DNA from: a virus
Lineage: Duplodnaviria > Heunggongvirae > Uroviricota > Caudoviricetes
IMG/VR virus record: IMGVR_UViG_643348544_000004
Reading direction: 5' to 3' (one strand)
Length of the DNA stretch: 44,988 nucleotides
A program made the translations under genes and the position numbers. The notes under the pieces are model-generated. The model was not told the origin of the DNA. It worked only from the letters and a program-made list of their open reading frames with translations, and searched no databases. Each line of letters opens with the position of its first letter. Positions within the stretch are counted from its first letter, which is position 1. Shown one piece after another: positions 4,435 through 44,371 of the stretch.

Positions 4435-4836
4435 CTTTAAAAAGGGCGGCAGAGCAGTCACGGAGTAAAACTGATACCGCCAAACGTCACCAGAAAATTG
4501 ATAACAGAGGGCGTTGCAGCGGGGTTGTCACTTAAGCGTATGGTCAACCTGACAACCCGGTGTCCTCAACGGGGAAGGAATAACCCCGCCATACTTACCG
4601 CCGCGCCATTTCGCGGGTTGCCACAACCGGAAGCGCACGGTCGACGAAAATTTAACGACAGGCTATCTATGAACCAGCTACCTCGCCGTGCGCTTTCGCT
4701 TTATGCCCTGACTTTTCAGGGACATATCCTTTCAGTAAACTGTCAGTGCCGGATGTTCACCCGTGTCCGGCGCACGCACTCCACCTGACCCGTGGAGAAC
4801 TCCTTAATTACCAACCTTAGCTTCGTTGGTTAGCTA

Positions 4837-12553: not shown

Positions 12554-12774
12554 GTTTTGATATTAATGTTTGGACATATAAATGCCCTTTTTTTAGGGGT
12601 GTTCATGGCGGTCATGTGCATTGAATACTGGCGGTAAATACAGCGAACGCCATTGGTTTAGTTGGATATTTACTGTGCCGGACAAAAACGGTTTGCGGGG
12701 AAATCTTAGTTAAGTAGAATAACTGCGGGTGCTTGAGGCTATCTGTCTCAGGCATGAACACCAAAAGGCAGATA

Positions 12775-12846
12775 GAGAAAAGCCCCAGTTAACATTACGC
12801 GTCCTGCAAGACGCTTAACATTAATCTGAGGCCATATCTATGCGAC
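12775..12846 (-). ncRNA. Predicted Sok-like antisense RNA of the hok locus
   Basis: Minus-strand promoter-like -35 TTGACC (12876-12881) and -10 TAATCT (12852-12857) with 18-nt spacer, directing transcription antisense to the hok leader; hairpin plus T-rich tract downstream; prediction only. Confidence 0.3.
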
Positions 12847-12899
12847 ACATAGAGATTAGCCTCTTACGGACCGAAAGGTCAAGGAGAAGCAGGCTATGA
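12840..12899 (+). CDS. Short mok-like leader ORF overlapping hok start (19 codons)
   Basis: ATG at 12840, stop TGA at 12897-12899 overlapping the hok ATG (ATGA); shorter than canonical mok. Confidence 0.25.
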   Translation: MRHIEISLLRTERSRRSRL

Positions 12900-14921: not shown

Positions 14922-15302
14922 ATGACCGAGCGCATAGAATTTGTTTTACCTTACCCGCCGACGGTGAACACTTACTGGCGACGCCGTGGCAGCACATATT
15001 TTATCTCGGAGGAGGGAAAGCGTTATCGCCGGGCTGTGGCGCTTATTGTTCGCCAGCAGCGGCTGAAATTAAGCCTGTCCGGAAGGCTGGCGATAAAGGT
15101 GATTGCAGAGCCACCGGATAAGCGTCGTCGCGACCTGGACAATATCCTGAAAGCACCGCTGGATGCGCTGACGCATGCGGGAGTGTTAATGGACGATGAG
15201 CAGTTTGATGAAATCAATATCGTTCGTGGTCAGCCAGTATCTGGTGGACGTATGGGGGTGAAGATTTACCCCATAATGCTTGAAGGGCAGGTCAAAAAAT
15301 GA
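14922..15302 (+). CDS. rusA: RusA Holliday-junction resolvase, 126 aa
   Basis: Pattern ...LPYPPTVNTYW...DKRRRDLDNILKAPLDALTHAGVLMDDEQF matches RusA family from memory. Confidence 0.8.
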   Translation: MTERIEFVLPYPPTVNTYWRRRGSTYFISEEGKRYRRAVALIVRQQRLKLSLSGRLAIKVIAEPPDKRRRDLDNILKAPLDALTHAGVLMDDEQFDEINIVRGQPVSGGRMGVKIYPIMLEGQVKK

Positions 15303-16120
15303 AACTGGAAGATTTACCGAAATACTACTCCCCAAAATCCCCCGGCCTGACTGATGCATCGGCCTCAACGTCAAAAGATGCGCTGAGTATCACTGATGTG
15401 ATGGCCGCGCAGGGCATGACACAGAATCGGGCTGAGATGGGGTTTTCTGCGTTCCTGGGGAAAATGGGCATCAGTATGAATGACAGGGCGCGGGCAACAG
15501 AATTACTGGCAGATTATGCACTCAGTCGGTGCGATCGTGTGGCGGCGTTGAGAAAACTCCCGGCAGAAATAAAACCGGTAGTGATGCGCATTATGGCTTC
15601 GTACGCTTTTGAGGATTATGCCCGCAGCGCAGCGAGTAAAAAGCAGTGCCCTTGTTGCTATGGGGAAAAATTTATTGAAAGCGTAGTTTTTACAAACAAG
15701 GTCCAGTATCCGGATGGTAAGCCGCCGGTATGGGCAAAGTGTACGAAAGGTGTGTATCCGTCTTACTGGGAAGAATGGAAAAAAGTCAGGGAGGTGGTAA
15801 AAGTTGCCTGTCCGGAGTGTGGCGGAAAGGGTGAGGTTTCCACCGCCTGTAAGGATTGCCGTGGGCGTGGTGTCGCCATTCATCGTGAAGAGTCGGTAAA
15901 ACGTGGTATGCCTGTTATCAGAGATTGCCAGCGTTGTGGTGGTCGTGGCTGTGAAAGGCTGCCATCAACGGAGGCATTTAATGCCATATGCAAAGTGACG
16001 AGTGCTATCACGCTTGATACGTGGAAAAAATCAGTGAAACGCTTTTACGATACGTTGGTGGTTCGGTTTGACATTGAAGAGGCATGGGCGGAGCGGCAGT
16101 TAAAGAGGGTAACGCGATAG
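15299..16120 (+). CDS. Late-gene antiterminator Q (phage-82/Quu type), 273 aa
   Basis: Cys-rich zinc-binding region (CPCCYGEK, CPECGGKGE, CKDCRGRG, CQRCGGRG); position immediately upstream of a promoter/terminator pair and the lysis genes. Confidence 0.75.
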   Translation: MKLEDLPKYYSPKSPGLTDASASTSKDALSITDVMAAQGMTQNRAEMGFSAFLGKMGISMNDRARATELLADYALSRCDRVAALRKLPAEIKPVVMRIMASYAFEDYARSAASKKQCPCCYGEKFIESVVFTNKVQYPDGKPPVWAKCTKGVYPSYWEEWKKVREVVKVACPECGGKGEVSTACKDCRGRGVAIHREESVKRGMPVIRDCQRCGGRGCERLPSTEAFNAICKVTSAITLDTWKKSVKRFYDTLVVRFDIEEAWAERQLKRVTR

Positions 16121-16125
16121 TGTTG

Positions 16126-16153
16126 TTGATTTTTCCCGAATCTGTGGTAAATT
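16126..16153 (+). promoter_or_regulatory. Candidate late promoter (PR-prime-like): -35 TTGATT, 16-nt spacer, -10 TAAATT
   Basis: Read directly just downstream of Q stop; hexamers approximate sigma-70 consensus. Confidence 0.35.
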
Positions 16154-16202
16154 TGCTCTAACGATGGGCGTTTTATGCCTGACGTTAGAAGATTTTTTAC
16201 AC

Positions 16203-16226
16203 CCCGCCGCCTGGCGGGTTTTTTAT
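16203..16226 (+). terminator. Rho-independent terminator (tR-prime-like) about 50 nt downstream of candidate late promoter
   Basis: CCGCC-GCCT-GGCGG hairpin followed by TTTTTTA. Confidence 0.55.
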
Positions 16227-16346
16227 GACTGAAATCGCGTCAGTACAGTAAACGCGCTGGTGGCGGTGAATACCTGTCTTTCAGCTTGCTGGCTTTTTCG
16301 ACAAGAGTTATTGGTGTGTCACGTTAACCGGAAAAGGGAAAAAGAC

Positions 16347-16544
16347 ATGCTAAAACAGCAGGATATGACAGAAACCGCCAGAGTAGTGTTTAATGAATTA
16401 AGCGTTACCGAACCGGCGACAGTCGGGGAGATAGCGCAGAATACTTACCTTTCACGCGAACGCTGCCAGTTAATACTGACCCAGCTGGTTATGGCGGGTC
16501 TGGCAGACTATCAGTTCGGTTGTTACAGACGCCTTCCGCAGTGA
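16347..16544 (+). CDS. Small hypothetical protein, 65 aa, possible winged-helix fold
   Basis: Internal ATG with GGGAAAAAGAC upstream; followed by its own terminator. Confidence 0.35.
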   Translation: MLKQQDMTETARVVFNELSVTEPATVGEIAQNTYLSRERCQLILTQLVMAGLADYQFGCYRRLPQ

Positions 16545-16557
16545 AGGCTTTTTTATT
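16531..16557 (+). terminator. Rho-independent terminator overlapping stop of the 65-aa ORF (GCCTTC-loop-GAAGGC + T-run)
   Basis: Read directly. Confidence 0.45.
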
Positions 16558-16694
16558 TGTGGTAAATGGGCGGCTGGTGGGTGTTAGGGGCACCCACCAG
16601 CCATCTGCTCATGCGTTGGGTTCACAAGCAAACCTCAGGCCCACTGCTTTGCGCAAAAGCAGAATGAGCCTATCAGAGACAGGCTTAATGATCC

Positions 16695-17744
16695 ATGCTT
16701 AATACTGTAAAAATATCCAGTTGTGAGTTAATCAACGCCGACTGCCTGGAATTTATCCGGTCGTTACCCGAAAATTCTGTTGACCTGATAGTCACGGACC
16801 CGCCGTACTTTAAAGTGAAGCCTGAGGGCTGGGATAACCAGTGGAAGGGCGACGATGATTACCTGAAGTGGCTGGACCAGTGTCTGGCGCAGTTCTGGCG
16901 GGTGCTGAAACCTGCCGGAAGTCTTTACCTGTTCTGTGGTCATCGCCTGGCATCTGATATCGAAATCATGATGCGTGAACGCTTCAGTGTGCTGAACCAT
17001 ATTATCTGGGCGAAGCCGTCCGGACGCTGGAACGGATGCAACAAGGAAAGCCTGCGGGCGTATTTCCCCGCCACAGAGCGCATTCTGTTCGCGGAACATT
17101 ATCAGGGGCCGTATCGTCCGAAAGATGCCGGGTATGCGGCGAAGGGCAGTGCACTGAAACAGCATGTGATAGCCCCGCTGATTTCTTACTTTCGTGATGC
17201 GCGCGCGGCCCTGGGGATAACGGCAAAACAGATTGCAGATGCCACAGGAAAGAAAAACATGGTGTCGCACTGGTTCAGTGCCAGTCAGTGGCAGCTACCG
17301 AACGAAAGCGATTATCTGAAATTACAGTCGCTGTTTGCCCGGGTGGCAGAAGAGAAACATCAGCGCGGTGAACTGGAAAAGCCCCACCACCAGCTGGTGG
17401 ATACGTATACGTCACTGAACCGGCAGTATGTGGAGCTGCAGAGTGAATATAAGCATCTGCGGCGGTATTTTGGTGTGACGGCGCAGGTGCCGTACACGGA
17501 TGTGTGGACACATAAACCGGTGCAGTTCTATCCCGGGAAACATCCGTGCGAAAAACCGGCAGAAATGCTGCAGCAGATAATCAGCGCAAGCAGTCGTCCG
17601 GGTGACCTGGTTGCAGATTTTTTTATGGGCTCAGGTTCAACGGTAAAAGCTGCACTGGCGCTCGGGCGTCGTGCGATTGGCGTTGAACTGGAGACCGGAC
17701 GTTTTGAGCAGACAGTCAGGGAAGTTCAGGATTTAATCGTTTGA
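16695..17744 (+). CDS. Orphan DNA methyltransferase (N6-adenine/N4-cytosine class, DPPY motif), 349 aa
   Basis: VTDPPYF catalytic motif and FxGxG-type SAM motif (DFFMGSGST) read in translation; no adjacent restriction endonuclease gene. Confidence 0.8.
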   Translation: MLNTVKISSCELINADCLEFIRSLPENSVDLIVTDPPYFKVKPEGWDNQWKGDDDYLKWLDQCLAQFWRVLKPAGSLYLFCGHRLASDIEIMMRERFSVLNHIIWAKPSGRWNGCNKESLRAYFPATERILFAEHYQGPYRPKDAGYAAKGSALKQHVIAPLISYFRDARAALGITAKQIADATGKKNMVSHWFSASQWQLPNESDYLKLQSLFARVAEEKHQRGELEKPHHQLVDTYTSLNRQYVELQSEYKHLRRYFGVTAQVPYTDVWTHKPVQFYPGKHPCEKPAEMLQQIISASSRPGDLVADFFMGSGSTVKAALALGRRAIGVELETGRFEQTVREVQDLIV

Positions 17745-17793
17745 AACGGATGAGATTGCAGAATTAATTACGCACCATTATTATTCTGCTTCC

Positions 17794-17869
17794 GGCCCTT
17801 TAGCTCAGTGGTGAGAGCGAGCGACTCATAATCGCCAGGTCGCTGGTTCAAATCCAGCAAGGGCCACCA
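17794..17869 (+). tRNA. ileZ: tRNA with CAT anticodon, most likely tRNA-Ile2 (lysidine; ileX/ileZ-like)
   Basis: Cloverleaf folded by hand: acceptor GGCCCTT/AAGGGCC, anticodon loop CTCATAA, T-loop TTCAAAT, 3' CCA; close to remembered E. coli ileX. Confidence 0.75.
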
Positions 17870-17876
17870 TCACATA

Positions 17877-17953
17877 CCGCCATTAGCTCATCAGGAAAGA
17901 GCGCCAGCCTTCGAAGCTGGCTGCGCGGGGTTCAAGTCCCCGATGGCGGTCCA
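17877..17953 (+). tRNA. argN: tRNA-Arg (anticodon TCG)
   Basis: Acceptor CCGCCAT/ATGGCGG, anticodon loop CTTCGAA, T-arm GGGGTTCAAGTCCCC, 3' CCA; folded by hand. Confidence 0.65.
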
Positions 17954-17966
17954 TTATCTGCATCAT

Positions 17967-18043
17967 GCGTTGTTAGCTCAGCCGGACAGAGCAATTGCCT
18001 TCTAAGCAATCGGTCACTGGTTCGAATCCAGTACAACGCGCCA
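17967..18043 (+). tRNA. argO: tRNA-Arg (anticodon TCT)
   Basis: Acceptor GCGTTGT/ACAACGC, anticodon loop CTTCTAA, T-loop TTCGAAT, 3' CCA; folded by hand. Confidence 0.75.
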
Positions 18044-18532
18044 CACTTATTTTCCCTGGCTCGCTTTTGCGGGCCTTTTTTTTAAATGTCTCACAATTCA
18101 GACGGTTGACAGTTGTCTGTTTTGCGGGGAGTTTGTTAAAAGAAACTGGCATGGTGAATCCCCCTGTGCGGAGGGGCAATCAGCGAGTAGGTATATGGGA
18201 TAATCGCGGATTCAGGTGCTGGTACTGAATTCACCGGGAGGCACCCGGCACCATGCAATGGCACATAGCGCCACTCTCCAGCCCCTCTCCGGAGGGGCTT
18301 TCTTATGGACAAAAAAAGCCCGCGCTGGGAGACGCGGGCGGCAAGGAATAAACAATAAAACGTGAAGTAATATTTCAGCTGGCGAATAATACCCCATAGT
18401 AATCACTCTGCGCAACTGCGCGGTCTTTTTCGAATTGCGGGCTGTAGTCTCCCTTCTGCCATTGTCCTGTAACTTCCGGACTTCAGCCTGCTCCTTATCT
18501 GACTCACAACATTATCCCGCCCGGGAGGATTC

Positions 18533-20395
18533 ATGACATTTAAACACTACGATGTGGTCAGGGCGGTGTCGCCGTCAGACCTTGCTGATGCACTTGCTCA
18601 AAAAATTCGTGAAGGATGGCAACCATACGGCGGGCCGTTTTCTTCGTATACGGATGATGGCGCAGCACTTATTCAGGCGATTGTCGCAGAAGGTGATGTG
18701 GTCGTCAGTGGTGCAACTGAGCCGGAGTGGTACTACGTCATCGTACTGGCCGGGCAGTCTAATGCCATGGCTTACGGTGAAGGGCTTCCGCTTCCGGATT
18801 CATACGATGCGCCCCATCCGCGCATTAAGCAACTGGCCCGTCGTAACACAGTGACTCCCGGTGGTGAAGTATGCGTATTTAACGACATCATTCCTGCTGA
18901 CCATTGTCTGCATGATGTTCAGGATATGAGTACGATTAACCATCCCCGGGCTGACCTGAGCAAAGGGCAGTACGGCTGTGTCGGACAGGGCTTACATATT
19001 GCCAAAAAACTGCTTCCGTATATCCCTAATAATGCGGGGATCCTGCTGGTACCATGCTGTCGTGGTGGTTCGGCATTCACCCAGGGCACGGAGGGGACAT
19101 TCAGCGAGTCCACGGGGGCCAGTCAGGATTCGGCTCGCTGGGGAGTGGGTAAGCCGTTATATCAGGATCTGCTTTTCCGCACGAAGGCAGCATTGCAGAA
19201 AAACCCGAAAAACGTTTTGCTGGCGATATGCTGGATGCAGGGGGAATTCGATATGAAGAATGCCAGTTACGCCCAGCAGCCAGCAGCATTTCTTGCAATG
19301 GTACAGCAGTTCCGTGCTGACCTTGCCGGGCTGGCGGCGCAGTGTCACGGTGGAAGTCCGGCATCAGTCCCCTGGATTTGTGGCGACACGACATACGCGT
19401 GGAAACAAGAACACGGTACACAATATGAAGTGGTATATGGTGCATATAAAGGTAAAGAATCCCAGCAGATTTATTTTGTTCCCTTTATGACCGATGGTAG
19501 CGGAGTTAATACACCGACAAACAACCCGTCAGAAGATCCTGATATTGCCGGGTCTGGTTATTACGGTTCGGCATCCCGAACGAACAAAAACTGGGTATCA
19601 TCAAATCGCCCGACGCATTTCAGCTCATGGGCGCGTCGTGGCATTATTCCCGATCGTATGGCAACTGCTATTCTGAACGTAGCCGGTCGCACCTTAGCCT
19701 TCATTAGTGGTAAGGCACCGGAAATCAAACCCTCGCCCGGCGGCGACACGCCATCGGGGCCGTCTGAAGATGCATCCGTACGCACAATCTCCCTGTTGCC
19801 GACAGCCGGAGATGCTGCTGCGCAGGGCTGGAGCATTAAGAATGGCGGAATTCAGTTGTCAGATGGTGTATTTAAGATCACCAAGCAGAGCAATAAAGCC
19901 TGGTCCCTGACGCGCCCGGTGGATGACGCAGTCTCCCTGCTGACACGGGGTGGCAGACTGAGCTGTAAGTTTCGACTGTCAGGCGCACTGACCAACAACC
20001 AGTTCGGTCTGGGAATTTATCTGTATACCGATGTAGCGTTACCTGACGTCGTGGCGATGACCGGGACTGGTAACCCGTTCCTGATGTCGTTCTTCACCCA
20101 GACCACAGACGGCAAACTGAATCTGATGCATCACAAGAAAGCAGGAAACACAAAGTTGGGCGAGTTCGGGAATTACAGTAACGACTGGCAGACGCTGGAG
20201 CTGGTGTTCACCGCCGGCAGTGCCACGGTTACTCCGAAACTGAATGGAGTGGCTGGCCCGGCATTCCAGGTCATAAAAGACAGTCTGACAGTGGGACTAA
20301 ATGCACTGACGCTGACGGATATTACCAAAAATGCAACGTATGGCGTTGAGATAGAAAGTCTGGTGCTGGAGATAAATGCACCGGCATCATCATAA
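18533..20395 (+). CDS. Prophage NanS-p-like sialate O-acetylesterase (N-terminal DUF1737-like + SGNH/SASA esterase + C-terminal domain), 620 aa
   Basis: GQSNAMAYG motif typical of sialate O-acetylesterases; position between tRNAs and holin as in Stx-type lambdoid phages. Confidence 0.7.
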
Positions 20396-20544
20396 AAAGT
20401 GAGCCAGTCAAATGGAAGGTATCGTTAAACTCACCGGTAGTGTCAGTGGGTCGTCTGAGACGCCTGCATGAGTTATCAGAGCCATCAGTACTTAACTGGT
20501 GGCTTTTTTATTGTTGTCAGCTTCCGGATAACGGGAGACGGGGT

Positions 20545-20760
20545 ATGTACCAGATGGAAAAAATCACAACAGGTGTGTCATACACCACGTCAGCGGTGGG
20601 AACGGGCTACTGGTTCCTGCAGTTGCTGGACAGGGTTTCCCCGTCTCAGTGGGCGGCAATAGGCGTGCTGGGGAGTCTGCTGTTTGGGCTGCTGACATAT
20701 CTGACTAACCTGTATTTCAAAATCAGAGAGGACCGTCGTAAGGCGGCGCGGGGGGAGTAA
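20545..20760 (+). CDS. S: Holin S (lambdoid Stx-phage type), 71 aa, dual-start motif MYQMEK
   Basis: Sequence [71 protein letters not shown] matches remembered holin; Met1 and Met4 candidate starts. Confidence 0.85.
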
Positions 20761-20764
20761 AGCG

Positions 20765-21571
20765 ATGAAGAAAAAATACGAACTGGGTGTTAAAGGGATA
20801 AATAATTATCCGGATAAGATTACTGTTACTGTGGCACTGGAAATTGGTGGGTATCCGTCACTGTTGTTGCCAGATGTGGCGATTAGTCTTGACCGTACTG
20901 AAGGTGCCACGCTGGAGTTTTACGAAGCTGAGGCGAAAAAGCAGGCGAAGCAGTTTTTCATGGATGTTGCTGCCGGGTTATGTGAAGGGGATGAGCAGTC
21001 GCCGGAAAAGCGCCCCGTAATTTTAGAGGCGCAGAATGTGTGGATAACCTACAAAGGAAAGCTACCGGGAAGAATTACTGGTTCTCTGAAGATGCCGCCG
21101 TCAACACTGCGGTCAGAAAAAGAGGCGTCTTGTCTGCAGTCTGAGTACTCCATTACGGTTAAAAGTGCCGGAGAGGAAGGAAATAAACGTTATTTTATTG
21201 CGTCTGCACCTGATAAAGATCAGGAATGGGAGTGTAACCGGCCATCCTTTGTTGTATACGGAGATGGCGGGAAAATAACCATCTCAGAAAATGGGAAATT
21301 AACACCGCCATCGCACCAGCATAGTGAGGCGCTCATTGAATTTGCCATTGATTACCTGAAGAACAATAAAAAGCAGGGGCTGATGAAGCGCATTGGTCGT
21401 TGCATGGGATATCTGCAGGTAGCAGCTGAGATTGAAATGATGGCCAGTGGTGCTGACAATGATGCAGTTGTGCTGGAGGCTCTTCTGCGTGATTTTGATA
21501 ATACGCCCTTTAAGAAAGCACCTGTTGACTGGATGCAGCCGGGGATGACTTATCTGAAAGGGCGTATATAA
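20765..21571 (+). CDS. Protein of unknown function, 268 aa, inserted between holin and endolysin
   Basis: ATG 5 nt after holin stop, so likely co-transcribed with late genes; no motif or family recognised. Confidence 0.5.
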   Translation: MKKKYELGVKGINNYPDKITVTVALEIGGYPSLLLPDVAISLDRTEGATLEFYEAEAKKQAKQFFMDVAAGLCEGDEQSPEKRPVILEAQNVWITYKGKLPGRITGSLKMPPSTLRSEKEASCLQSEYSITVKSAGEEGNKRYFIASAPDKDQEWECNRPSFVVYGDGGKITISENGKLTPPSHQHSEALIEFAIDYLKNNKKQGLMKRIGRCMGYLQVAAEIEMMASGADNDAVVLEALLRDFDNTPFKKAPVDWMQPGMTYLKGRI

Positions 21572-22023: not shown

Positions 22024-22557
22024 ATGAACACCAAAATCAAATATGGCCTGTCGGCTGCCGTTCTGGCGTTGATTGCCATCGGTGCGCCTGCGCCTGATAT
22101 TCTCGACCAGTTTCTGGATGAAAAAGAAGGTAACCACACAACGGCATACCGTGATGGTGCGGGTATCTGGACCATCTGCCGCGGTGCCACAATGGTGGAT
22201 GGTAAACCTGTTATTCCGGGCATGAAACTGTCGAAGGAAAAATGCGACCAGGTTAATGCCATTGAACGGGATAAGGCGCTGGCATGGGTGGAGCGCAATA
22301 TTAAAGTTCCACTGACCGAACCACAGAAAGCGGGTATAGCGTCATTCTGTCCCTATAACATTGGCCCCGGTAAGTGTTTCCCGTCGACGTTTTATAAGCG
22401 GCTGAATGCTGGTGACCGCAGGGGAGCGTGTGAGGCGATTCGCTGGTGGATTAAGGACGGTGGCAGAGACTGCCGTATCCGCTCAAATAACTGTTATGGT
22501 CAGGTATCCCGTCGTGACCAGGAGAGCGCGCTGGCGTGCTGGGGAATCGACAGATAA
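22024..22557 (+). CDS. R: Endolysin R (phage lysozyme, likely SAR type with N-terminal signal-anchor-release helix), 177 aa
   Basis: N-terminal Gly/Ala-rich weakly hydrophobic segment (LSAAVLALIAIGAPAP) followed by lysozyme-like domain resembling phage 21-type endolysin. Confidence 0.8.
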   Translation: MNTKIKYGLSAAVLALIAIGAPAPDILDQFLDEKEGNHTTAYRDGAGIWTICRGATMVDGKPVIPGMKLSKEKCDQVNAIERDKALAWVERNIKVPLTEPQKAGIASFCPYNIGPGKCFPSTFYKRLNAGDRRGACEAIRWWIKDGGRDCRIRSNNCYGQVSRRDQESALACWGIDR

Positions 22558-42967: not shown

Positions 42968-44371
42968 ATGACAGTAAAAATTTCTGGCGTGCTTAAAGAT
43001 GGCACAGGAAAACCAGTACAGAACTGCACCATTGTGCTGAAGGCCAGACGAACCAGCAGCACGGTGGTGGTGAACACGGTGGCCTCTGAAAATCCGGATG
43101 AAGCCGGACGTTACAGCATGGATGTTGAGCATGGTCAGTACAGCGTCACCCTGCTGGTTGAAGGTTTTCCGCCTTCACATGCCGGGACCATCACCGTGTA
43201 TGAAGATTCCCGACCCGGTACGCTGAATGATTTTCTCGGTGCCATGACGGAGGATGATGCCCGTCCTGAGGCACTGCGCCGTTTTGAACTGATGGTGGAA
43301 GAGGTGGTGCGTAACGCAGAGGAGGCGAAGAAGAATGCCGGAGAGGCGGAGACGTCAGCGAGGAATGCCGGCATATCAGCCAGTCAGGCAGAAGAGAGCG
43401 CTGCAAATGCTGACACTTCAGCAGGGGATGCATCGGAGTCAGCCCGGCAGGCGGCAGAAAGTGCAGCCTCAGCAAAGCAGTCAGAGGAGGCGTCCTCGTC
43501 CTCGGCCTCTGCGGCCGCTCAAAAAGCCAGTGAGTCATTACAAAGTGCAACAGATGCTGAGTTGTCAAAAAAGACGGCAGAAAGTGCAGCCGGTAATGCA
43601 GCCAGGGATGCAACGACCGCAACAGAAAAAGCCCGGGAGTCAGCAGAAAGCGCACAGTCAGCGGAACAAAGCAGGATAGCGGCGGAAGAGGCCGTAAACC
43701 GAATCCCCACCGTGGTGGGACCTCCCGGGCCAAAGGGGGAACCGGGGCCCGCGGGTCCTCAGGGGCCGAAGGGAGATAAAGGAGAGCGTGGCGACACCGG
43801 CCCGGCAGGGGCAACCGGTGAACGGGGGCCGGCAGGTGATGCTGGTCCGGCAGGCCCGCAGGGGCCGAAAGGCGACAGGGGAGAGACCGGTCTGACGGGA
43901 AATGCAGGTCCTCAGGGACCTAAAGGGGATGCGGGAGCTGCAGGCCCGGCAGGGCCACAGGGACCGAAAGGGGATACGGGAGCTGCAGGGCCGGCAGGGC
44001 CACAGGGACCGAAAGGGGATACGGGAGCTGCAGGCCCGGCAGGGCCACAGGGACCGAAAGGGGATGCAGGAGTCGCAGGTCCGGCAGGACCACAGGGACC
44101 ATCCGGAAGCCCTGACAGCGGGCTGTTTGGTGTCGGTTCTTTTGTTCTTGCGGCGTATTACCAGACGTATTATTCGGGGGACCGTGCCCCTGGCTCAACT
44201 GTTGCCGGGTCATCACTGTCTGCATGCTGCCTTTCGAATGGTACTCCCCTGGTTGCTTCCGGTAATGTGGGGGAGACCCGTTTACCGGGCACGTGGCGTG
44301 CATGTGGTCCGATGCTATGGACATCATCTCCGGGTATCAGACAGGCAGGATTATTTCAGCGCATATCATAG
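42968..44371 (+). CDS. stf: Side tail fibre protein with collagen-like Gly-X-Y repeat domain, 467 aa
   Basis: N-terminus [27 protein letters not shown]... matches lambda Stf N-terminus; central run of about 45 Gly-X-Y triplets; divergent C-terminus. Confidence 0.75.
43924..44103. repeat. Tandem 45-bp repeats (about 4 copies) encoding [15 protein letters not shown] collagen-like units in stf
   Basis: Read directly from sequence; produces many spurious overlapping ORFs on both strands. Confidence 0.75.

Follow-up and report, generated by a model that had tools for sequence, protein, structure and literature searches.

A toxin-free late region in a lambdoid prophage at yccA: a tRNA trio, an unoccupied stx2 insertion point and two predicted convergent small RNA genes

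We analysed a 44,988-nt stretch of DNA (the window) that consists of a complete lambdoid prophage, from integrase through tail fibres, integrated beside yccA. The window is 99% identical to the yccA-adjacent prophage of E. coli O111:H21 strain 15A, and collinear with it save for one short early-region replacement. DicF and a hok/sok locus are also present in the window. The late region has the order Q, DNA methyltransferase, three tRNAs, nanS-p and holin (Table 1); a sequence-only reading of this DNA had proposed that order, and Pfam supports each of its protein genes. A Pfam search of the nanS-p ORF placed a SASA catalytic domain between a phage-specific N-terminal DUF1737 and a C-terminal DUF6645, and PGAP names the homologue 'SASA family carbohydrate esterase' or 'DUF6645 domain-containing protein'. 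NanS-p in non-Stx prophages has already been documented (PMC10462455).

Table 1 Features of the late region, in window coordinates; promoters, transcript limits and the seed are predictions
Feature	Position	Strand	Basis
Late antiterminator Q (273 aa)	15299-16120	+	Pfam PF03589, E 3.9e-51; PGAP homologue 'antitermination protein'
DNA N6/N4 methyltransferase	16695-17744	+	Pfam PF01555, E 2.4e-44
Candidate sigma-70 promoter of tRNA cluster	17756-17784	+	TTGCAG, 17-nt spacer, TATTAT; predicted start ~17791; read from sequence
tRNA-Ile2 (anticodon CAT; ileZ/ileX type)	17794-17869	+	ARAGORN; Rfam tRNA model 72.5 bits
tRNA-Arg (TCG), argN type	17877-17953	+	ARAGORN; Rfam 58 bits
tRNA-Arg (TCT), argO type	17967-18043	+	ARAGORN; Rfam 70.1 bits
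Intrinsic terminator closing tRNA cluster	18058-18083	+	GGCTCGC-TTTT-GCGGGCC then T8; terminator scan
stx2 insertion point, unoccupied in window	18084-18087	.	Flank alignments to Stx2_95 and Stx2a_1447
Conserved block upstream of STnc100	18088-18148	+	TCACAATTCAG..GTTGA plus putative promoter-like set
STnc100-family small RNA gene	18120-18310 (Rfam limits)	+	Rfam RF02076, 139.2 bits
EcOnc42/EcOnc21/EcOnc08-family small RNA	~18504 to 18311; conserved 3' core ~18380-18311	-	Homology to EPEC PP6 locus
Intrinsic terminator of minus-strand sRNA	18318-18339, U7 tail 18317-18311	-	Terminator scan; hairpin flagged in the sequence-only reading
Putative seed CCUUGCC (GGCAAGG on + strand)	18346-18340	-	CTTGCC invariant in 8 homologues
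Possible internal promoter	18386-18415	-	TTGCGC (18415-18410), 18-nt spacer, TATTAT (18391-18386); putative start ~18380
Extra terminator-like hairpin, role uncertain	18408-18423	+	CTGCGCAACTGCGCGG then TCTTTTT; terminator scan
Promoter-like site	18511-18539	-	ATGTCA, 17-nt spacer, GATAAT; consensus scan; overlaps nanS-p start codon
nanS-p type sialate O-acetylesterase, 620 aa	18533-20395	+	Pfam DUF1737 + SASA + DUF6645
Class II (P21-type) holin	20545-20760	+	Pfam PF04971, E 2.6e-32; PGAP annotation of homologue
Lysozyme	22024-22557		Pfam

ARAGORN found exactly three tRNA genes in the window, all on the plus strand, and the Rfam tRNA covariance model (RF00005) agreed with it on the three positions given by the sequence-only reading. 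Their anticodon order, CAT, TCG, TCT, is that of the trio annotated ileZ/argN/argO in Stx2a_1447. The CAT tRNA was identical to K-12 ileX, a tRNA-Ile(CAU), at 68 of 76 positions, with the differences forming compensating stem pairs, compared with 54/76 for elongator and 49/76 for initiator tRNA-Met. PGAP and GenBank name its homologues tRNA-Ile or ileZ; the ARAGORN label is Met. The acceptor stem reads GGCCCTT/AAGGGCC, and the TilS determinants in this stem are C4-G69 and C5-G68. The tRNA is, judged by these features, an ileX/ileY-type tRNA-Ile2 and not a tRNA-Met, as had been proposed; its decoding of ATA assumes lysidine modification. Rare codons occur in the window ORFs at 8.0 (ATA), 5.7 (AGA), 6.5 (AGG) and 5.4 (CGA) per 1000, about 1.5 to 4 times the E. 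coli averages. The trio (Ile2-CAU, Arg-UCG and Arg-UCU) may therefore provide extra decoding of ATA, CGA and AGA/AGG, codons that are rare in E. coli and fairly common in the prophage.

The candidate promoter of the tRNA cluster was absent from the output of the consensus scan because its -35 hexamer matches at 3/6 positions only. The terminator that closes the cluster (hereafter the argO terminator) is conserved in stx-free phages and in Stx2 phages, and in the latter it precedes stx2A.

Between the last tRNA and nanS-p lies a gap of 489 bp (18044-18532), which the sequence-only reading had described as free of ORFs and as containing several GC-rich hairpins. No ORF in it is credible, the longest being 43-77 aa and none having a Pfam match, and the terminator scan returned 10 terminator-like hairpins in 16000-19000 against 3.2 +/- 1.8 in shuffled sequence, an approximately threefold enrichment. 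The minus-strand GCCCGCG/CGCGGGC hairpin with a T-run, singled out in the same reading, was recovered with its arms at 18318-18324 and 18333-18339 and seven T at 18317-18311. On the plus strand, the GCGC/GCGC hairpin at 18408-18423 is kept in seven of eight homologues.

Searching the gap with Rfam identified an STnc100 gene on the plus strand, matching model positions 1-206 of 206 (gathering score 47, E ~1e-31). The same model scored 154-160 bits right after stx2B, 177 bits after stx1B in Sakai Sp15 and, in phage phi296, which lacks stx, 158 bits; the copy in the window is a shorter allele that lacks approximately 15-20 model positions. The region folds at -67.2 kcal/mol (z -2.4). The transcript likely runs from ~18149 to ~18306, with a terminator hairpin at 18280-18299 whose tail (UUUCUUAU) is a poor Hfq-type U-tract. 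Upstream is a promoter-like set consisting of -35 TTGTCT (18113-18118), TG (18134-18135) and -10 TAAAAG (18137-18142). In an alignment of six sequences, which averages 57% column identity and includes DNA after stx1B and after stx2B, TTG-CT (18113-18118), TG (18134-18135), TA-AA (18137-18141) and GCATG (18149-18153) are invariant, and we infer that these positions represent the -35, the extended -10 and the start site. The 5' limit of EPEC PasD2 from RNA-seq/RIL-seq aligns to the G at 18149; this limit, the EPEC RNA-seq limits and the conserved hexamers are what we used to place transcript 5' ends, here and on the minus strand. TTGACA at 18106-18111 was rejected as the -35 of STnc100, since 25 nt separate it from the sole plausible -10.

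STnc100 has been located 75 nt downstream of stx2 in a 2025 paper, which also reports a PCR product for STnc100 from STEC vesicle RNA (PMC12370729). According to a 2026 preprint, STnc100 and the related but divergent PasD are sRNAs of prophages, located upstream of the phage esterase gene (bioRxiv 10.64898/2026.05.13.724894). We also searched for other prophage sRNAs. For PasA/PasC, the spacer between nanS-p and holin had no homology to the EPEC PP2 spacer. AsxR (RF02703) had no match in window 15500-21500 at E <= 1, nor in the scanned Stx loci at the gathering threshold, and nothing similar to StxS was found among the Rfam matches in the window and the Stx loci, although Rfam may hold no StxS model.

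The opposite strand of the gap carries a second sRNA homologue. The segment ~18311-18505 is 91.8% identical over 195 nt to EPEC E2348/69 PP6 (NC_011601 1444797-1444991; minus strand relative to nanS-p), where Hfq RIL-seq in EPEC located a 182-nt sRNA at NC_011601 1444797-1444978 on the strand opposite nanS-p (PMC8550237 supplements). This RNA, 'E2348C_1409.E2348C_1408.IGR', has 37 partners, headed by the leaders of cfa (767 chimeras) and dppA (197) and by pcm (118), and the motif of its targets is GGCAAGG/GGCAGGG (PMC8550237). A table by the same authors equates the PP6 RNA with EHEC EcOnc08/21/42 (PMC8550237), and our assignment of the window RNA to the EcOnc42 family follows that table rather than the EcOnc42 coordinates of Tree et al. 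2014. In Sakai, EcOnc42 is placed 3' of stx1AB and has been validated by Northern blot and Hfq-CRAC (PMC7547250, PMC7873438). More widely, loci of EPEC, O157, O111 and phage genomes match the minus-strand RNA region at 92-100% identity, and the spacer between stx1B and nanS-p in Sakai Sp15 matches window 18149-18566 at 87%.

The predicted 3' end of this RNA is the hairpin already noted by the sequence-only reading: a stem of seven G-C/C-G pairs plus U7. All 8 pairs of the terminator helix persist across 8 homologues, and two of these pairs have compensatory changes on both sides (in a divergent Stx1c phage and PhiR49_2). Just upstream of the terminator, the putative seed CCUUGCC is complementary to the GGCAAGG/GGCAGGG motif of the EPEC RIL-seq targets. 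Homology with matching strand and context, seed complementarity and a Rho-independent terminator with a U-tail all support membership of the EcOnc42 family. An OmrA-B match on this strand was rejected as a family member (25 bits in Rfam against a gathering score of 40), but the weak match was still useful as a hint of an sRNA-like 3' end.

Two candidate promoters on the minus strand predict transcripts of very different sizes. The TTGCGC and TATTAT hexamers are invariant in 8/8 homologues, including two with unrelated DNA further upstream, which suggests an internal promoter and an RNA of ~70 nt. The site at 18539-18511 would give a form of ~194 nt, nearer to the 182 nt of the EPEC RNA; the EPEC RNA-seq 5' limit maps to approximately 18492 in the window. 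The full-length minus-strand RNA folds no better than shuffled sequence (z -1.2). The two sRNA genes are convergent, with their 3' ends 4-5 nt apart.

To locate stx relative to these genes, we aligned the window with Stx2 phages. Window 17600-18084, which spans the 3' end of the methylase, the three tRNAs and the hairpin-plus-T8 terminator, aligns upstream of stx2A in Stx2_95 and Stx2a_1447 (91% identity), and 18087-18700 aligns downstream of stx2B in both (86%). The Stx2_95 cassette of ~1332 bp, comprising a leader, stx2A, stx2B and a trailer of ~40 nt, replaces ~2 nt (18085-18086) and is bordered by short ATCTG-like repeats. Because the flanks align either side of stx2AB there, the cargo site is a point at 18084/18087 and not a 490-bp stretch. 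The right-hand boundary, a conserved block starting TGTTAAAT...TC(A/T)CAATTCAG...GTTGA, is also used after stx1B, in an Stx1c phage and in Sakai Sp15. By these alignments, window 18087-18532 is conserved and corresponds to DNA that follows stxB in Stx1 and Stx2 phages. The sequence-only reading had seen here an Stx-phage-type late region without the toxin, with 18044-18532 as the slot where stx would sit. The first part stands, since stx2AB does lie between the tRNAs and nanS-p in Stx2 phages; the second does not, as most of that stretch belongs downstream of stxB and holds the two sRNA genes.

We searched the whole window for stx remnants, using stx2a and stx1c cassettes (blastn) and four Stx subunits (tblastn), and obtained chance-level matches only; the residual fragments for which a BLAST search had been proposed were found nowhere in the window. 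The one match in the slot arose because the stx1c cassette included the shared sRNA promoter block at its end. An Stx-converting phage is characterized by stxA and stxB located after Q/tRNAs and before the lysis genes; the window lacks both.

We found the exact empty junction (window 18020-18160) in 1018 of the 5426 complete E. coli genomes searched, approximately a fifth, and its carriers include commensal, ExPEC, EAEC and APEC strains; the stx2-occupied junction of argO terminator and stx2A was present in 592 of the 5426. The same toxin-free layout occurs in non-Stx prophages of O157:H7, O111:H8, EAEC 042, and APEC and urinary isolates. The minus-strand sRNA region was found in 936 of the complete E. 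coli genomes and was unannotated in every match listed. Beyond Escherichia, a scan of one genome per species for GCCCGCG-N8-CGCGGGCGGCAAGG, a badly chosen pattern, gave 56 chance matches and no enterobacterial match. The 56 came from unrelated, mostly high-GC bacteria (Streptomyces, Mycobacterium, Rhodobacteraceae and others).

The sequence-only reading had left two origins for the locus, an ancestral empty site or a remnant after loss of the toxin. A recent, precise deletion of stxAB from an Stx-converting prophage could leave both flanks homologous to Stx2 phages, as they are here, and the ATCTG-like repeats around the stx2 cassette could mediate such an excision. However, the stx searches remained at chance level, and the STnc100 allele next to the tRNA terminator is of a 'short' type common to toxin-free prophages (100% identical in 042, O111:H21 strain 15A, Nil3 and EPEC PP6), whereas the allele found after stx is of a 'long' type, only ~70% identical to it. 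E. coli 042 carries the short and long alleles in tandem, and the window corresponds to the 042 arrangement minus the segment between two identical terminators. The Q protein also differs, with 273 aa as opposed to 113-160 aa in the Stx phages examined, and the identical empty junction is shared by the many strains described above. With no stx scar and an STnc100 allele unlike the stx-adjacent one, a remnant of recent loss is disfavoured, and we consider it improbable. We regard an stx-free allele of long standing as more likely than such a loss.

Two further readings of the gap we regard as highly improbable. The gap might be a non-functional spacer in which the hairpins are incidental, leftover terminators, and RefSeq annotation there indeed amounts to a doubtful pseudogene fragment. 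Yet the Rfam match lies 92 bits above the gathering score, both elements recur with 70-100% identity beside stx1, beside stx2 and in prophages that lack stx, the promoter-like hexamers and the seed are invariant, and homologues have been detected experimentally as RNAs (PMC12370729, PMC8550237, PMC7547250, PMC7873438). Alternatively, the gap might encode small proteins missed through their non-ATG starts. Phage annotators place three small ORFs in it, and the minus-strand ORF 17973-18179 matches phrog_27294 (function not assigned) with E 9e-46. We rejected this ORF as a protein gene: it is antisense to tRNA-Arg(TCT) and its terminator, and for this reason phrog_27294 is most simply taken as a family of over-called ORFs. 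The six small ORFs, mostly TTG/GTG-started and overlapping tRNA or hairpins, gave 0/6 Pfam matches, and the other five matched no PHROG; the only PGAP call in the gap is a partial pseudogene.

We therefore favour, at a probability of approximately 80%, an stx-negative lambdoid prophage at yccA whose late region combines the tRNA trio, an empty stx2 point, two convergent sRNA genes and their terminators. Following this logic, transcription of the tRNA cluster would stop at its own intrinsic terminator, and the point at which stx2AB is carried as a moron in Stx2 phages follows directly, unoccupied and with no spacer. The next 450 bp hold two convergent sRNA genes, STnc100 on the late strand and the EcOnc42-family RNA on the opposite one, which would be transcribed independently. 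Judging by their homologues, both would be expressed in the lysogen, in this strain as well, and act as Hfq-type trans regulators of host mRNAs. By homology to the EPEC RNA, the minus-strand RNA would bind Hfq and, with CCUUGCC as its seed, base-pair with host messages, the cfa and dppA leaders among them. In the lysogen, the plus-strand terminators (at 18058, 18280 and 18408) may keep transcription of the tRNAs and sRNAs from reaching nanS-p and the lysis genes, leaving these silent. Once the prophage is induced, Q-modified RNA polymerase would read through every terminator, as expected from established lambdoid late-gene control.

A more speculative extension concerns the sRNA pair itself. 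At or beside the module we found stx1, stx2, an extra STnc100 copy, iraM or an IS element. The convergent STnc100/EcOnc42-family pair could be a fixed 'bookend' module whose upstream block (TGTTAAAT..TCACAATTCAG..GTTGA) serves as a recombination joint for moron swapping. Over its full length the minus-strand RNA runs antisense to both the late transcript and the nanS-p leader, and so could set the read-through into nanS-p and the lysis genes in lysogens. We offer this combined proposal tentatively and think it rather unlikely to hold as a whole.

Returning to the favoured reading of a toxin-free late region with two sRNA genes, the feature appears real and functional, and every element of it has been described before: the literature already covers the trio of tRNAs, the occurrence of nanS-p in non-Stx prophages, and the positions of STnc100 (downstream of stx) and EcOnc42 (3' of stx). 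Its main value is for annotation, as an apparent empty toxin slot that is blank or filled with pseudo-ORFs in RefSeq holds two conserved predicted regulatory RNA genes, in an arrangement that about one complete E. coli genome in five carries. The alignments also fix the stx2 insertion point to one junction, with the argO terminator on its left and the STnc100 promoter block on its right. This junction could be a precise marker of occupied and empty alleles in surveillance genomes, and could aid the study of toxin cassette gain or loss.

Among known sRNAs, EPEC PasD resembles the window STnc100 in the GCAUGGUGAAUCCCCC...GGAGGGGC 5' hairpin and in its position upstream of a phage esterase gene. 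It differs in that PasD1/2 score 38-41 bits on the STnc100 model, below the gathering threshold. We rejected an identification of the window sRNA as PasD: the first 39 nt of PasD2 alone align (79%), with no other BLAST match, and close identity to PasD1 or PasD2, including the seed UGUGAG region and the terminator, was not found. The minus-strand RNA shares with EcOnc42/21/08 its place immediately before nanS-p and its orientation, antisense to the late operon, as well as the seed and the terminator (92% identity to the EPEC copy, 87% to the Sakai Sp15 spacer). Unlike EcOnc42 in Sakai, the window homologue, a prediction from sequence with two candidate starts and sizes, adjoins no toxin gene.

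The late region as a whole is, by its gene content, an accessory module typical of Stx phages and of many toxin-free relatives. Stx2-converting phages of the 933W/Sp5/Stx2_95 type have the order Q, methylase, ileZ-argN-argO, stx2AB, STnc100, nanS-p and holin. The window shares with them this gene order, the three tRNAs and the argO terminator (91% identity), and its sRNA block upstream of nanS-p is 86-98% identical to that of Stx2_95; it differs in lacking stx2AB (~1332 bp at 18084/18087), in having another Q type and in carrying the short STnc100 allele. The tRNA trio, sRNA block and nanS-p also occur together with no toxin in a series of stx-negative phages and prophages, namely phi296, phi315, phi367, TL-2011a, Nil3, Lahn2, 042, EPEC E2348/69 PP6 and the non-Stx prophages of O157:H7 and O111:H8. 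Within this group, E. coli 042 is distinguished from the window by its two tandem STnc100 genes, EPEC PP6 by ISEc13 inside STnc100, and phi296 by a 28-nt spacer and a long STnc100 allele.

The prophage is predicted to carry at least four regulatory RNA genes, because Rfam matches to DicF and to the sok antitoxin RNA, both at gathering level, join the STnc100 gene and the minus-strand EcOnc42/EcOnc21/EcOnc08-family sRNA gene of the late region. A hokD homologue adjoins the sok antitoxin RNA. The stretch separating Q from the methylase gene contains two strong terminator-like hairpins, which are candidate sites of tR' and of a second late terminator. The Rfam hits included nothing StxS-like. A further hairpin with a T-run is found in the spacer that separates nanS-p from the holin gene; EPEC PP2 carries the sRNA PasA at the equivalent position, but no sequence homology was found between this hairpin region and the PasA spacer of PP2.

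Features of the window, in order of position
Feature	Position	Strand	Score	Remark
DicF	4444-4495	-	76.7 bits	Rfam
sok antitoxin RNA	12727-12898	+	106.7 bits	Rfam
Terminator-like hairpin	16203-16224	+		Q/methylase
Terminator-like hairpin	16531-16554	+		Q/methylase
ORF, phrog_27294	17973-18179	-	E 9e-46	Unknown function
Hairpin and T-run, AGCCATCAG...CTGGTGGCTTTTTTAT	20481-20512	+		nanS-p/holin
YdfR/DUF1327 ORF	20765-21571	+		268 aa

The ORF matching phrog_27294 lies on the strand opposite tRNA-Arg(TCT) and the terminator of that tRNA gene, and this family probably consists of over-called ORFs. In related genomes, likewise, PGAP puts a partial pseudogene labelled 'hypothetical protein' on the strand opposite STnc100. 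At the YdfR/DUF1327 position, whereas the window encodes 268 aa, relatives have a 116-aa protein or frameshifted pseudogenes. Within the tail-fibre gene, a BLAST ladder with 45-nt offsets at window 43904-44100 indicates a tandem 45-nt repeat.

Phage vB_EcoS-813R8 shows that other cargo can be accommodated in this neighbourhood, since its equivalent region (L010 2540-4600) has only the CAT tRNA, two copies of STnc100, a small ORF named 'TciB' and an iraM-like anti-adaptor gene. Its nanS-p has shrunk to a DUF1737 stub. In PP6 of EPEC E2348/69, STnc100 is inactivated by ISEc13 (L009 3101-4650), which sits within the gene at the point corresponding to window 18164-18171, with an 8-bp target duplication. 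The insertion left the minus-strand sRNA intact, and this is the RNA that RIL-seq detected.

E. coli 042 (L005, NC_017626) carries two STnc100 genes in tandem (L005 3370-4047), ~27% divergent from each other: a short-type gene identical to the window copy and a long-type gene of the type found in Stx phages. The ~280 nt between them include a further hairpin with a T-run (L005 3745-3771). The longer span, of 1297 bp, was found in many of the genomes compared. Relative to E. coli 042, the window has the same arrangement minus the segment between two identical terminators.
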